Source of the DNA: Deltaproteobacteria bacterium RBG_16_49_23
Lineage (GTDB): Bacteria; Desulfobacterota; BSN033; UBA1163
DNA length: 64,000 nt
Reading direction: 5' to 3'
Assembly (NCBI GenBank): GCA_001798855.1
Contig: MGQQ01000132.1
Coordinates: 4,421 to 68,420 of the forward strand
This document shows, one piece after another, positions 56,898 to 62,550 of this stretch (the first letter of the stretch is position 1; each line of letters starts with the position of its first letter). A program made the translations under genes and the position numbers. The notes below the pieces were generated by a model. That model had not been told where the DNA came from and searched no databases. It saw only the letters and a list, made by a program, of their open reading frames with translations.

Positions 56898-57350
56898 ATG
56901 ATTTCAAGGAAACGTCTTTCCCCTTTCTTCAGGATCGTTTTTCTTTTATCCATCCTTCTATTCCTCGCCGCCTGTGAGCATTCCCCTGAGATCGGTCCAG
57001 GACCTTTGGCAGGATTTTCTGAAAAGGCGACCGCCCTGGTCACCACCACCGTCAGGGGTCAACTTAGAGACAATCCCCCAAAACAGACACTCCTTGCCGC
57101 ACAACTTCCATCTTTCGAAAAAACGGCCACCATGAATCAACTAATGGATGAACTTAAAGGGATAGATCCCCTGAAGAATCTTGCCTACCTCATTGAAACG
57201 GATATCATGTTTGAACTTCAGAAACCGGAACATCACTACGAAAGAAGTCATTTCAACTCATCGGAAATCCAGCGCGAGGTGGTCCTTGCAATCATCACCG
57301 GGATGAAGAGGGCGCTTGCCCAGCTCAAAGGAGGGAAAGGTGGCGCATAA
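56898..57350 (+). CDS. hypothetical lipoprotein
   Basis: A signal peptide with a lipobox (LFLAACE). Confidence 0.5.
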   Translation: MISRKRLSPFFRIVFLLSILLFLAACEHSPEIGPGPLAGFSEKATALVTTTVRGQLRDNPPKQTLLAAQLPSFEKTATMNQLMDELKGIDPLKNLAYLIETDIMFELQKPEHHYERSHFNSSEIQREVVLAIITGMKRALAQLKGGKGGA

Positions 57351-58320
57351 AAGGGCCCTGGTCTTAAGTGGCGGAGGGGCGAAAGGCGCCTTCACGGCAG
57401 GCGTGGTCAAATATCTGGCGGTTGAACGCGGACACCACTTCGATCTCGTCGTGGGAACCAGCACCGGCGCTCTGATCGCTCCCCTTGTGGCAACTCAGGA
57501 CATTGCCAACCTGATCCACTTTTACGAGAACGTGGAAGACCGGGATATCCTTACCGACCGCCCCGATCTCCTGGCCTTTCTCTTCTCCGACGCCCTCAAC
57601 GATACCAAACCCCTTGAGAGGCTGATCCATAAATTCTTTGGCGACAGAAGACGTTATGAGAGGCTCCTCCGGTCCTCCACAGAGATATTCGTCACTGTCG
57701 TCAATATGCAGACCGGAGAGATTGAATACGGAAACCAGCGCCAGGATCCAAAACCAACACTCCTCAAAAAGATCCTTGCCTCCGCATGCGTTCCTGTCAT
57801 GATGCCTCCCGTCAAAATCGGAAAATATCAGTATGTCGATGGAGGGGTGAAGGAGATTGCGCCCTTCGGGAAGGCGATGGATGAAGGGGCAACCCACATT
57901 GTCTCCGTTATCCTCTCCCCTGATCCACGGCATCGGGAGCCGGTCCGAAAAGAATTCACCGGATCCATGGAGATATTGAAGCGGACCCTCGCACTCCTGA
58001 CCGATGAGATAGTGGACAACGATCTGAAGACCGCAACGGTTTACAGCGAAGCCATTCGCTATCTCGATCAGATCAAGACTAATGCGAAAGAAAAACTCGA
58101 CCTACCCGATTCACAAATACGGAAGCTTTTTACAGGATTCGAAAATCCATTCCAGGGGAAAAGGGTCGTTGGAATCACAACCATCAGACCTGATGAAGAA
58201 TTGATGGAGTCCTCCCTGAACTTCGACCCTGACAAGATGCGGGAGATGGTTGACAAGGGATATCAAAAAGCAAAAGAAGTGGTCAGCCAGGAAATCACCC
58301 AGGGCACCGGCTTCTTCTAA
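57340..58320 (+). CDS. patatin-like phospholipase
   Basis: GGGAKG oxyanion motif, GTSTG serine motif, and D-G-G. The probable start is the GTG after GGAGG. Confidence 0.8.
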   Translation: MAHKRALVLSGGGAKGAFTAGVVKYLAVERGHHFDLVVGTSTGALIAPLVATQDIANLIHFYENVEDRDILTDRPDLLAFLFSDALNDTKPLERLIHKFFGDRRRYERLLRSSTEIFVTVVNMQTGEIEYGNQRQDPKPTLLKKILASACVPVMMPPVKIGKYQYVDGGVKEIAPFGKAMDEGATHIVSVILSPDPRHREPVRKEFTGSMEILKRTLALLTDEIVDNDLKTATVYSEAIRYLDQIKTNAKEKLDLPDSQIRKLFTGFENPFQGKRVVGITTIRPDEELMESSLNFDPDKMREMVDKGYQKAKEVVSQEITQGTGFF

Positions 58321-59046: not shown

Positions 59047-59452
59047 ATAGGTAATATAATACCAAACATTATAATTTATGTCAATAATTCCTATTTATGC
59101 GGAAAGAAGAAAAGAGTGGCGCCCCGCCATGCGCAGGATTGTCTTCCTCAGGAAGTCAGTACAACTCGCTCTAAGCGGACGGAGATCGCCGGAGAATACC
59201 CTCCCCGGCGGCAGGCAGGTGCAGAAGACCAAGCATCATTGTTTTAAATAAAAGTGGGTTTAAAAACCCGCCTCCCTCCTTCACACAATTATTTTCTGAA
59301 TGGATGATTATGTCAGAAAGAGAGAAAAAGGTTGAGGAGGCAGGTCTTGCAATACAGCTATTTAACTATCTTGACGCCTCTATCATTTTTTTGATAATGT
59401 TCTACCATCGCAAGGAGACCAAGTCTGGATGCCCCGGGGAGAATTTACCATA

Positions 59453-59635
59453 TTATTGGTTGGAGGAAGGTTTTTCAGGCAGGAAATTGGCGAAGTCTCT
59501 CGCCCAGTTCACATAAAATGGCGAACGATCCGGCCGTACCCTGTTCTCTTCGGCGCACGCACGGTATGCTTCCCAAAAACTATCGTACCCTTTAGAGGAA
59601 TTACGGAGATTCATGATTTTCACCATAGAAACCAT
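59453..59635 (-). pseudogene. intI: N-terminal remnant (60 aa) of a tyrosine recombinase, integron-integrase (IntI)-like
   Basis: ...RSPFYVNWARDFANFLPEKPSS matches the IntI N-terminal motif (IntI1 [22 protein letters not shown]; VchIntIA EAYLHWITRYIHFHNKKHPS). The ORF terminates after 60 codons, and no recombinase-like frame continues downstream. Confidence 0.4.
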
Positions 59636-59649
59636 TTTGATTTTAACAG

Positions 59650-59660
59650 GTTAGGCTAAC
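59650..59660 (+). other. attI-like core GTTAGGC(TAAC) immediately upstream of the intI remnant and before the first cassette gene
   Basis: It matches the GTTRRRY recombination core and is followed by an AT-rich inverted repeat TAATGATAG...TTATCATA. Confidence 0.35.
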
Positions 59661-59751
59661 ATCAGGCATGTAATGATAGACAGAATTATCATATCATAAT
59701 ATAATTTTTCCGTCTACTATCTGTTGGGCCTCATAATATGAAGGGAAAAAT

Positions 59752-60600
59752 ATGCATCCTCAAACATATCTAAAGACATTTTGGCGTTTGGAGTTGCGTT
59801 CCCAAGTATTTGTTGCAATGAGTTTTGCTCCACAATATGAGAGTAGATTTAAAAACGTAATTACGCCAGCAATCCAATCCTTAATTGTTGATGGTAGACG
59901 CCTAGAACCATATCGAGTAGACATATCTAAGTCTGGTGACTCCATACTCACCGATATCAGTGACGGAATTGCACACTGTCGCTTGGTATTAGCAGACGTT
60001 TCCTCAGTCGGGAGAGATGCAGTAACAGGGCAGCCATACCGAAATGCCAATGTAATGTATGAAGTTGGGATCGCGCTGGCATGCAGACACCCGAGCGAAA
60101 TTCTATTGTTAAGAGACGATCACGACAAGTTCCTTTTTGATGTAAGCACTGTCCCTCATATAACGCTTGATTTCACTAACACTGCTTCAGCAATTCAGGG
60201 TTTAGCAGAACATTTATTGGCTCGTATACGTGAACAGCGATTTATTAACGATGCTAGGATCCAGATAGCTATTTCTTCATTAAGTGCAGAAGAAATATTA
60301 TTGCTAAAGCAAATGCGAGAGTATACCATCACGACTGTTTGGGGCAGAGAGGTCAAAGGTTTGGCAAATTGGTATGCGTTGGCTACGTCGCGGCTGCTCG
60401 ATAAGGGCGTTATCAAATTGGCCGGAGAGTTTGAAGAGAATAAGCCTGCTTATACCTTCACACCCTTTGGTTATGTGGTTCATCAAGCCATCAATTCGAG
60501 CCTTCGTAAGTTTGAGGCTCAGAAACCTGAGACGCAGGCGCAGGCTTCACCGGAAGAGATCGAGAAGGCCCAACAAGAAAATCCAGCGGACGCGGAATAA
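59752..60600 (+). CDS. cassette 1: protein with an N-terminal nucleoside 2-deoxyribosyltransferase/SLOG/TIR-like (flavodoxin-fold) domain plus an unknown C-terminal domain
   Basis: VFVAMSFAP...CRLVLADVS...NANVMYEVGIALACRHP follows the NDT-like D/NxG(T)xxExGxAxAxGKP pattern. Confidence 0.5.
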   Translation: MHPQTYLKTFWRLELRSQVFVAMSFAPQYESRFKNVITPAIQSLIVDGRRLEPYRVDISKSGDSILTDISDGIAHCRLVLADVSSVGRDAVTGQPYRNANVMYEVGIALACRHPSEILLLRDDHDKFLFDVSTVPHITLDFTNTASAIQGLAEHLLARIREQRFINDARIQIAISSLSAEEILLLKQMREYTITTVWGREVKGLANWYALATSRLLDKGVIKLAGEFEENKPAYTFTPFGYVVHQAINSSLRKFEAQKPETQAQASPEEIEKAQQENPADAE

Positions 60601-60656
60601 CCGTGGCGTGGTTTTGGATTGGTGGTTGCCCGCGCCGCTGATTTAGATCGTTAGGA
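60568..60656 (+). other. attC-like site 1 (R'' GCCCAAC ... R' GTTAGGA)
   Basis: The stem AAATCCAGCGGACGCGG pairs with CCGCGCCGCTGATTT with two extrahelical bases. It overlaps the stop codon of cassette 1. Confidence 0.45.
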
Positions 60657-60667
60657 GTTAATCTGTA

Positions 60668-61465
60668 ATGAGCAAAATCGATGCAAACGGTTTCCTTGAA
60701 GGCAGCATCTGTAACTGGATTGCAGATCACAGGGACCGGCACGCTACGGTGTTTACAGCTATCCGGGAACTAAACCGGGAATGCCATCGATTTCTAGACG
60801 GCCGGGCAGTTGACGTCACGAGCGAATTGCACATAACTACAGCAGTGCTGTTTGCTCGACTGATGGAACTTTTCCAAGGAATGTTCATCGCCGTTGAGCA
60901 CGGCATGACGTCAGTCAGTAATGTAGTGTTCCGAGCTTATCTCGAAGCGTACTTCTGCCTTATGGCCATTCACAGGGACCCCACGTTCCTCAGGCAATAC
61001 TTGGACCAGCTTCACGTCGCTCGAAAAAGGTTGGTTAATCGTATACGTAACTCAAGCAGTCCAAGTATCGCTGCACTTCAAGAAGCGCTGGATGAGAATC
61101 TCGCTCGGGATATCAGTCAAACTATAAAAGAGCAGGATATCAAGCCTCTGAAGATCGAGGACGTTGCACGCAGGGCTGGTCTTCACGATGTCTACGCGAC
61201 AGCATACACGGTCTTGAGTGGTGCAGTCCACACGGCAGCATGGGATCTTGAATCCCACCTCGACTACGATGACACAAAAAAAGCAATCCAAGGGTTCCAG
61301 TATGGCCCTTCAGACTCCAATACTGAGAAATTACTCGGGCTTGCTGGCATGGTTATGGCTGACGCACTCGAAACAATCTCGTCTATCTTTAACGAGGATC
61401 GGGCTCAATTATGTGCGGGGTTCACGAGTCAATTTCAGGCTGCTCTGGGGGAGAGGCCGGCCTAG
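60668..61465 (+). CDS. cassette 2: all-alpha hypothetical protein (265 aa)
   Basis: About 52% GC; no firm domain recognised. Confidence 0.45.
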   Translation: MSKIDANGFLEGSICNWIADHRDRHATVFTAIRELNRECHRFLDGRAVDVTSELHITTAVLFARLMELFQGMFIAVEHGMTSVSNVVFRAYLEAYFCLMAIHRDPTFLRQYLDQLHVARKRLVNRIRNSSSPSIAALQEALDENLARDISQTIKEQDIKPLKIEDVARRAGLHDVYATAYTVLSGAVHTAAWDLESHLDYDDTKKAIQGFQYGPSDSNTEKLLGLAGMVMADALETISSIFNEDRAQLCAGFTSQFQAALGERPA

Positions 61466-61517
61466 AAAAGGTGATCCAGCTCGCATTGGAGTAGGAATTT
61501 CTCTCCTATCCATCGCT

Positions 61518-61599
61518 CCTAACTACGGCATGCATGCGACTGCGTACAGCATCCGCTGCGCTCCCGCTTCCCGCCGCGCCTGATGCTCGGCGTTAGGCC
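61518..61599 (+). other. attC-like site 2 (R'' TCCTAAC ... R' GTTAGGC)
   Basis: 82 bp with an imperfect internal palindrome (GGCATGCATGCG / GCATCAGGCGCG). Confidence 0.45.
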
Positions 61600-61631
61600 A
61601 TATTGTAGGTACGAAAGGAGCTAAATAATCT

Positions 61632-62339
61632 ATGGTTCTACTTCGTCTCATATTTGCAATTCTTTTTGCTCCGATTAGATGGTTAACGAATCCAATAACA
61701 CGGCCTAAGAATAGTCTTCTGGAATGGCATCTTTCCTATGCACCTTTCTTTGTGAAAATTCAGACCAATCATAAGGAGAAGTTTTTGAATGATGATCTGC
61801 TGATAGCGAGCTACATTATGTTTTTGGCTCGTTATCTTTATATCTGCGATGATCGACAAGTGCATATTGCTCGATGTTTTATGCTTGACTCTGTAAGAAG
61901 GTCACAAAAACCAAATGAAATAGCAGCTAAACTTTATGAAGCAGTTTTTAAGACATTAAACCCTGTGGAACAAGATGCGACAATTAAATTATTCAAGATT
62001 TATTCTCGATTTACGAGCCTTCCCCCCCTCACATATTCCGAGGATAAAGAACCAAGTCATTCATATGCAAAATATTCATTTTATGTCATTAAAAGTGGCA
62101 GGGGTCTAACTTCTATTTTTCATATGTCGGCAGGACCGGACAAAATTCTTCTTCCTCTTACGGTCGGGATTCTATATGAGTATGTAGTAGATAAAGTTCG
62201 GAACAGGGAGAAGAAAGAAAAGTTAGATCGATCAATGATTGATTTGATGGAAGGTTACAATTCTGTTGATTGCCGTTCACGGGAAGGATTTAGCATGTTG
62301 CCAGCTGAAATTGTTAAGAAACATAATCTTGAAATATGA
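61632..62339 (+). CDS. cassette 3: hypothetical protein (235 aa), AT-rich (about 38% GC), hydrophobic N-terminus
   Basis: ORF only. Confidence 0.4.
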   Translation: MVLLRLIFAILFAPIRWLTNPITRPKNSLLEWHLSYAPFFVKIQTNHKEKFLNDDLLIASYIMFLARYLYICDDRQVHIARCFMLDSVRRSQKPNEIAAKLYEAVFKTLNPVEQDATIKLFKIYSRFTSLPPLTYSEDKEPSHSYAKYSFYVIKSGRGLTSIFHMSAGPDKILLPLTVGILYEYVVDKVRNREKKEKLDRSMIDLMEGYNSVDCRSREGFSMLPAEIVKKHNLEI

Positions 62340-62460
62340 CTTGGAAGATATGGGGCCAAACCTAAATTACACATTTTACAGGGCTGGTTAAGGGTAATGT
62401 GGTTTGTAGACCGCACTGGGGTCAAACCTGATTATTGAGTTTAAAAGGAAGATGTGCAGC

Positions 62461-62550
62461 GCCTAACAAACCAATCAACCCGACTGGGAATAGTCCTTGT
62501 CGGTTTTATGGCGAGGTGGTTGCCCCAGCGGGGTATTTTTGTCGTTAGAC
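62461..62550 (+). other. attC-like site 3 (R'' GCCTAAC ... R' GTTAGAC)
   Basis: Consensus R boxes with an imperfect stem CCCGACTGGG / CCCCAGCGGGG. A second GTTAGATTAAC lies just downstream. Confidence 0.5.

Follow-up and report, generated by a model that had tools for sequence, protein, structure and literature searches.

What might a solitary integron cassette encode when its product matches no named protein family? This question is raised by an open reading frame (ORF) found in a stretch of 64,000 nucleotides (the whole of which is hereafter called the window) from contig MGQQ01000132.1 of Deltaproteobacteria bacterium RBG_16_49_23. From the letters of this DNA alone, the original prediction had recognized the ORF as the first cassette of an array and had proposed that it encodes a flavodoxin-fold protein of the nucleoside 2-deoxyribosyltransferase (NDT), SLOG or TIR kind, possibly a novel defence module. 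Here, the cassette 1 protein is described as a member of a large, unnamed family that is widespread across phyla, and as a plausible and good defence candidate by analogy with known immune proteins. It is best read as a TIR-like N-glycosidase, probably an NADase, that would work like Swarozyc or Cap12. The reading that we favour, to which we give roughly even odds, is that of a self-contained sensor-effector, in which a winged helix would recognize a component of an invader and a TIR/NDT-like domain would cleave NAD+ or another nucleotide by means of the glutamate E104.

A large family with a TIR/NDT-like domain and a winged helix

The gene and the parts of its product are as follows.

59752..60600, + strand: ORF (stop counted) of 282 amino acids, comprising a TIR/NDT-like domain, a stalk helix, a winged helix-turn-helix (HTH) and a disordered tail
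59794..60171, + strand: N-terminal TIR/NDT-like domain, residues 15–140, beta-alpha-beta, with a family-specific beta-hairpin insert at residues 85–97
60061..60063, + strand: codon of the putative catalytic residue, Glu104, within the motif NVMYEVG
60181..60279, + strand: long single helix, residues 144–176 (33 residues), the ‘stalk’ joining the two domains in the AlphaFold2 model
60286..60501, + strand: winged HTH domain, residues 179–250, of near-neutral charge

The ORF lies where it had been predicted and contains both of the motifs that had been singled out, VFVAMSF (residues 19–25) and NANVMYEVGIALA (residues 98–110). At least 821 homologues (E ≤ 1e-3) were retrieved from among 5.8 billion proteins; the best 120 are nearly all full length (approx. 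250–300 amino acids; 55–96% identity), are named ‘hypothetical’ in every case and carry no Pfam domain. A profile restricted to the N-terminal domain retrieved 1379 representative clusters at E ≤ 1e-3, of which 403 also passed 1e-10 and 106 passed 1e-30, and nearly all of the best 150 clusters comprise proteins of 240–310 amino acids with the domain at residues 12–142. Given these 821 homologues and 1379 clusters, the ORF is a real, conserved gene. The window protein itself gave no match to the Pfam, NCBIfam and PADLOC models in direct scans, and sequence and profile searches of the PDB sequences with it yielded chance matches only.

An AlphaFold2 model of the window protein was built from 38 homologues (mean predicted local distance difference test score 79.9). 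The C-terminal part, for which a single uncharacterized domain of approximately 130 amino acids had been proposed, consists instead of the helix at residues 144–176, the winged HTH at residues 179–250 and a disordered, acidic and variable tail, whose coding sequence (60502–60600) overlaps in part the attC site of the cassette. In the model, the winged HTH follows the order helix, helix, helix, beta-hairpin, helix; it carries a net charge of +0.8 and resembles the repressors MarR, ArsR and PadR. The N-terminal domain is also fused, in certain genomes, to C-terminal regions that are longer or different (ORFs of 435–536 amino acids, or a tblastn match to residues 1–134 only), as seen in loci L069 (9314–10921), L068, L056 (5142–6446), L067, L070, L071 and L073. 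These alternative regions matched nothing in Pfam, and they suggest a pairing of the enzyme domain with several sensor modules.

Conservation was followed, and Pfam scans of relatives were made, in two sets: 38 close members (scanned at E ≤ 1) and 70 diverse members with 28–44% identity (scanned at E ≤ 0.1). E104 is invariant in 38 of 38 sequences and kept in at least 90% of the 70 diverse members; together with D82, R97, N98, N100 and G106, it belongs to a group of residues that are invariant or nearly so in both sets. The conserved polar residues (among them E104, D82, R97, N98 and N100) suggest an enzyme.

The structural and sequence matches bear out the predicted fold, an NDT/TIR flavodoxin-like domain with a conserved glutamate. 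Indeed, a Foldseek search with the N-terminal domain of the model, a check that had been called for, ranked TIR-STING (Cap12; 9lmq, 7un8) first, with an E-value of 2.6e-4, and listed beside it trypanosomatid NDTs, BcmB and the SPARTA TIR domain. Structural matches to TIR domains extend to TIRAP (11.8), IL-1RAcP (11.4), RPS4 (10.9), TIR-STING (10.7), SARM1 (10.2) and Cat1 (9.8). The domain has the flavodoxin-like fold of the NDTs; SLOG/LOG proteins, which had also been named, are its closest neighbours neither in structure nor in sequence.

Single members of the family give Pfam matches that are weak yet repeated. CAP12-PCTIR_TIR (PF10137) was matched by 13 of the close and 31 of the diverse members (best E 3.2e-6), Nuc_deoxyrib_tr (PF05014) by five (best E 0.0064) and 11 (best E 0.0016), respectively, and TIR_2 (PF13676) by 16 close members, at E 0.011–1, and three diverse ones. 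The PF05014 gathering threshold (28.8 bits) was reached neither by the best of these relatives (E 0.0016) nor by the window protein, which had no match to this model at E ≤ 1. A more direct link is provided by a plasmid protein of Bacillus mycoides, annotated as a nucleoside 2-deoxyribosyltransferase and itself above the PF05014 threshold, to which the window protein is 29% identical over residues 18–160 (BLASTP, 1e-12). In the alignment of the two sequences, E104 falls on the glutamate of VYFEAGYA (the FEAGYA motif), and the hairpin at residues 85–97 stands out as an insert specific to the cassette 1 protein family. The nearest known line of the N-terminal domain is accordingly the Cap12/Pycsar-type TIR-like domain, bordering the NDT superfamily.

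A single-gene integron cassette and its spread

The fold, the conserved residues and the order of the domains are established, as is the structure of the cassette, delimited by the following features.

59636..59729, no strand assigned: attI region with core site GTTGGGC (59723–59729), conserved up to CTGTT in related platforms
59724..60650, + strand: cassette 1 (927 bp), extending from the attI crossover as far as the G of R′ in its attC, with ORF 59752..60600 as the only ORF inside
60568..60656, + strand: attC of cassette 1, R′′ GCCCAAC and R′ GTTAGGA, located by a relaxed attC scan and by its fold

The bottom strand of this attC (89 nt) folds into a hairpin, imperfect and paired at its ends (z −2.64), that none of 200 shuffled sequences equalled. 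Its R′′ box lies within the last 11 codons of the ORF; the tail of the protein is thus partly encoded by attC, which accounts for the variation in tail length and sequence among homologues. At the other end, the window and the related platforms L077, L078, L084 and L085 align up to CTGTT (59720–59724) and diverge directly after it, and we therefore place the attI crossover between G and TT, at 59723/59724.

Two other delimitations were considered and rejected. GTTAGGC at 59650, a candidate core of attI, falls inside the conserved attI region according to the comparison of platforms. A two-gene cassette, joining ORF 59752..60600 to the following DUF5677 gene, was also envisaged, and the first segment tested for an attC (60590–60665) contained no hairpin; the relaxed scan then placed R′′ inside the end of the ORF, and the full 89-nt site folds well.

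The family was further examined in 65 loci, one genome being retained per species. These are distributed among Desulfobacterota-like deltaproteobacterial metagenome-assembled genomes (MAGs), Actinomycetota, Chloroflexota, Planctomycetota, Nitrospirota, Acidobacteriota, Gemmatimonadota, Pseudomonadota, Verrucomicrobiota, Omnitrophota and others, with one ANME-2 archaeon MAG; overall, the family spans more than 15 bacterial phyla and forms hundreds of clusters at 50% identity. An attC lies just after the stop codon in at least 10 of 60 copies, versus 21 of 315 control genes from the same loci. The family gene is a textbook cassette in locus L016, within an array of 116-nt attCs, and L063 provides a further example. 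In an Actinomycetota MAG (L020, 8820–10825), the homologue is the first cassette after an intact intI, whose product is 51% identical to IntI1 and is encoded on the same strand as the cassettes; GTTAGGC occurs there 37 nt before the start codon of the homologue. ORF 59752..60600 thus shows every feature of an integron cassette for which it was tested, namely the 3′ attC fold, the 5′ boundary and recurrence in other arrays.

No recurrent partner gene and no synteny were detected across the 65 loci when 150 neighbouring ORFs were compared with Pfam and PADLOC: the count for any one Pfam family does not exceed three, and that for any PADLOC family does not exceed two. In some cases the gene comes after a type III-like methylase/helicase pair or a DUF1156/DUF499 pair, or has a FokI-type nuclease gene in its vicinity, and in others it stands among ordinary genes. 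A housekeeping orthologue kept in synteny, the case that would have spoken against a defence module, is excluded by the patchy, horizontally spread and non-syntenic distribution of the gene. Horizontal spread and the lack of a partner gene are both established, and the solitary state of the gene at the 65 loci counts in favour of a self-contained system. As to vehicles other than integrons, no close homologue was retrieved from 72,556 plasmids (only the distant Bacillus protein) or from deposited phage genomes, and viral contigs contained only two relatives.

The contig assigned to the ANME-2 archaeon MAG (L031, 1106–2035) carries a 52%-identical homologue, a possible case of inter-domain transfer or a binning error.

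Likeness to immune effectors and competing explanations

Swarozyc (KpSwz) is a DUF4062/NIR TIR-like NADase (bioRxiv 10.64898/2026.05.01.722283, 10.64898/2026.09.04.749371); its catalytic residue is E97, its stalk is helical, and its AUX domain, of HTH/winged type, binds the portal of the phage (10.64898/2026.05.01.722283). By its published description, it shares with the cassette 1 family a single-protein organization, an N-terminal TIR-like domain with a glutamate near position 100, a stalk, a C-terminal HTH/winged domain, and a patchy, horizontally spread distribution. It is because the parts come in the same order, and the glutamate at nearly the same position, that we favour a sensor-effector. 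The two families nonetheless differ, as cassette 1 proteins lack a DUF4062 match, show matches to CAP12-PCTIR_TIR and NDT instead, and possess the beta-hairpin insert at residues 85–97.

By sequence profile and by Foldseek (9lmq, 7un8), the closest proteins are Cap12/TIR-STING and PycTIR (PF10137), the TIR effectors of CBASS and Pycsar, with which the family has in common what we take to be a shared motif, NV-x-[FY]-E-x-G. Cap12 and PycTIR are NADases turned on by ligand-driven oligomerization, and the likeness is counted, by analogy, for a similar mode of action here. However, the sensor of the cassette 1 protein is a winged helix and not a STING or cyclic nucleotide monophosphate (cNMP)-binding domain, the window protein falls below every Pfam threshold, and no cyclase or CD-NTase family is present among the 25 commonest Pfam families of the 150 neighbouring ORFs. 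With the NDT superfamily (PF05014; MilB, BcmB, DNPH1/Rcl), the cassette 1 family shares a glutamate that aligns, through the Bacillus intermediate, with that of the E-x-G motif. It differs by its extra hairpin, its fusion to a winged helix, its scores below the gathering threshold and its mobile-cassette context, in contrast to the nucleotide-salvage or antibiotic-biosynthesis context of that superfamily. A ThsA partner, as in Thoeris, is also missing, there being no PADLOC match for the protein or its neighbours in the window and no recurrent neighbour. Thus, the cassette 1 protein resembles Swarozyc or Cap12 in its predicted mode, but it cannot be filed in either family, since DUF4062 fails, PF05014 remains sub-threshold, PF10137 and TIR_2 match in part, and a STING/cNMP sensor, a cyclase and ThsA are all absent. 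It matches no known defence model in PADLOC and hence represents no known system, in line with the novelty that had been claimed for it.

That integron cassettes are a reservoir of defence genes, as the original prediction held, is documented by the BRiCs of Kieffer et al., integron cassettes with demonstrated phage-defence roles, among which Brc236 contains a TIR domain (10.1101/2024.07.02.601719). As described, Brc236 is like cassette 1 in being a short integron cassette that holds one gene, for a protein with a TIR-type domain. BRiCs, however, reside in plasmid-borne mobile integrons, whereas the cassette 1 family is found in chromosomal integrons of environmental bacteria.

We infer the substrate, the trigger, the oligomerization and the anti-phage role of the cassette 1 protein. 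In the mechanism proposed, the C-terminal winged helix is most likely a recognition or assembly module that would bind a protein or nucleic acid derived from the invader. This binding would gather the catalytic domains and turn them on, and Glu104 would then cleave the nicotinamide–ribose bond of NAD+ (the most likely target) or the glycosidic bond of another nucleotide, so that the infected cell would be halted, as in abortive infection. Besides the layout shared with Swarozyc, we count in favour of this mechanism the near-neutral charge of the winged helix, the adjacency of some copies to restriction-modification or other defence-type genes, and the recurrence of the gene as an integron cassette.

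Several observations weigh against this mechanism. PADLOC, which the original prediction proposed as a check, returned no match for the protein or for its neighbours in the window. The window protein matches none of the Pfam TIR or NDT models at E ≤ 1, and DUF4062 was matched by none of the 38 close and none of the 70 diverse members, i.e. in 108 scans in all. Nucleotide hydrolases (MilB, BcmB and DNPH1/Rcl) are among the top structural matches, and the substrate may accordingly be other than NAD+. Defence genes are sporadic among the 150 neighbouring ORFs (raw counts). Finally, mean column identity in the alignment of homologues amounts to 54% across phyla, and such high conservation is unusual for a sensor engaged in an arms race. 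The proposal of a defence module is plausible and better motivated than before, and the recognition of the C-terminal domain as a winged helix sharpens it towards a sensor-effector of the Swarozyc or Cap12 kind. It remains a candidate role, as the neighbours at the 65 loci include only scattered defence genes and no recurrent partner.

The first of the competing explanations, an unlikely one in our estimation, sees in the protein an N-glycosidase of the NDT/MilB/DNPH1 type acting on nucleotides or DNA, which would remove bases from (modified) mononucleotides or from DNA to which it is tethered by the winged helix. Such an enzyme could deplete or sanitize the nucleotide pool, or attack modified phage DNA. 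The direct BLAST link to a PF05014-positive protein agrees with this explanation, as does the fact that winged HTHs usually serve to bind DNA; yet here the domain lacks a basic character (net charge +0.8), the diverse members match the CAP12/Pycsar TIR model more often than the NDT model (31 versus 11 of 70), and the best Foldseek matches are TIR-STING proteins. Moreover, we know of no NDT-fold enzyme that acts on polymeric DNA. The same winged HTH, through its resemblance to MarR, ArsR and PadR repressors, could be taken as the mark of a one-component transcription factor, in which it would bind DNA while the Rossmann-like N-terminal domain senses a nucleotide ligand without catalysis. We consider this improbable, as a glutamate and polar residues typical of a catalytic site are conserved, the charge of the winged helix is near neutral, the 65 loci share no conserved neighbouring target gene or operon, and a solo cassette enters unrelated genomes where there would be nothing for a dedicated regulator to control.

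We see little likelihood, too, that the gene encodes a TIR-type signal producer or adaptor in need of an unlinked partner, or a mildly toxic, addiction-like product that stabilizes the cassette array. Thoeris TIR domains do make signalling nucleotides, stabilizing toxin systems are common in integron arrays, and a TumE/antitoxin pair adjoins the integron platform in the window. But no recurrent neighbour is fit to be an effector or an antitoxin, each cassette holds one gene, and the family spreads alone across phyla, as fits a self-sufficient unit.

Returning to the self-contained sensor-effector, we tentatively propose, as a possibility falling short of an even chance, that the cassette 1 protein is the founding member of a widespread family of single-protein immune sensors, in which a Cap12-like domain is switched by a winged helix recognizing a phage component, and which would stand beside Swarozyc as a sister line and travel from phylum to phylum mainly in the form of an integron cassette. 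If so, a new TIR-like family would be added to the immune effectors that target NAD+, and the layout of TIR-like domain, stalk and winged helix, only just described for Swarozyc, would exist in a second sequence family. Such systems would then be seen to travel between distant phyla, and to archaea, in chromosomal integrons of environmental bacteria and not solely in those of Vibrio or in clinical class 1 integrons. To a specialist, another single-gene TIR-like candidate would not be very surprising; the family is nonetheless large and unnamed and extends across phyla, and its protein, small (282 amino acids) and predicted to act alone, is easily tested.

The integrase-less platform and its surroundings

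Around cassette 1, the following features were identified.

59453..59635, − strand: integrase remnant, a 60-codon ORF whose first approximately 57 codons are the N-terminal extension of an integron-integrase lineage
59360..59441, − strand: sequence homologous to the region just 3′ of an intact intI stop (blastn to L077 7384–7463; intI stop of L077 at 7352)
59677..59705, + strand: promoter-like site TAGACA-17-TATAAT (11/12), directed into cassette 1, a consensus match only
59688..59716, − strand: overlapping promoter-like site TAGACG-17-TATGAT, directed towards the integrase remnant, a consensus match conserved in platform alignments
60651..61592, + strand: cassette 2, DUF5677 protein (ORF 60668–61465; PF18928, E 2.1e-26), attC 61517–61598
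61593..62544, + strand: cassette 3, 235-amino-acid protein (ORF 61632–62339), attC 62461–62550

The 60-codon ORF has 135 homologues of 52–104 amino acids, and PF13495, the SAM-like domain at the integrase N terminus, is present in several of them. Its counterpart in L077 continues into an integrase of 357 amino acids (PF13495 and PF00589) that faces a divergent array of small genes, and it is on this basis that we recognize it as the N-terminal extension of an integron integrase. The remnant's approximately 57 codons join the 3′ flank of intI, which indicates that the body of the integrase was deleted internally; the stretch of L077 matching 59360–59441 is 80 bases long, and the stretch or the junction is also present in L084 and L085. 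No integron integrase was found elsewhere in the 64-kb window (tblastn with IntI1 as query), and the 60-amino-acid ORF shows no resemblance to IntI1, its lineage being recognized by database search alone. As a complete integron, the locus fails, the integrase being deleted and the cassettes remaining.

This integrase remnant (59360–59635; L077, L078, L084 and L085) belongs to a recurrent integrase-less platform. Many metagenomic contigs display the same ORF of 52–57 amino acids, ending in FLPEKPFPEQ and a stop, followed by the approximately 115 bases that normally lie 3′ of an intact intI stop, and other internal deletions exist in the platform variants P0187, P0172 and P0124. The integrase body seems to have been lost in one clean deletion in an ancestor, which then spread together with attI, the promoters and a changing set of cassettes.

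Concerning expression, the position of the ORF as first cassette next to attI was correctly predicted, and a promoter-like site does lie upstream; the claim of highest expression at this position presupposes a functional integron, and here the integrase is deleted. The −10 hexamer of the cassette-facing site is conserved in related platforms, the −35 hexamer less so. Both promoter-like sites, overlapping and opposite, are held in a near-palindromic AT-rich stretch at 59676–59717 (TAGACAGAATTATCATATCATAATATAATTTTTCCGTCTA), conserved in related platforms, through which intI and the cassettes may be controlled jointly.

On the side of the remnant away from the cassettes, approximately 1.1 kb past it, lies a patatin-like phospholipase gene (57316–58320, + strand; PF01734, E 2.1e-31), and an Rfam scan of 56–64 kb found nothing. 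Two genes on the − strand between 58373 and 59046, sharing 22 bases, have the look of a toxin–antitoxin pair: one encodes a TumE toxin (PF20126, E 3.5e-17), the other a winged-helix protein of the HVO_A0114 type (PF25212, E 1.1e-22). The pair directly adjoins the integrase remnant, outside the cassette array.

Among the other cassettes, the DUF5677 gene is also present in the cassette array of L078 (3200–4009), so that it too recurs as an integron cassette. The 235-amino-acid protein of cassette 3 has no family match; the G+C content of its gene (approx. 0.36 versus approx. 0.48 around it) suggests a recent foreign origin. An inverted repeat resembling an attC (GTCTAAC...GTTAGAT, 125 nt) occurs inside its coding region, at 62104–62228, and is probably a chance match.
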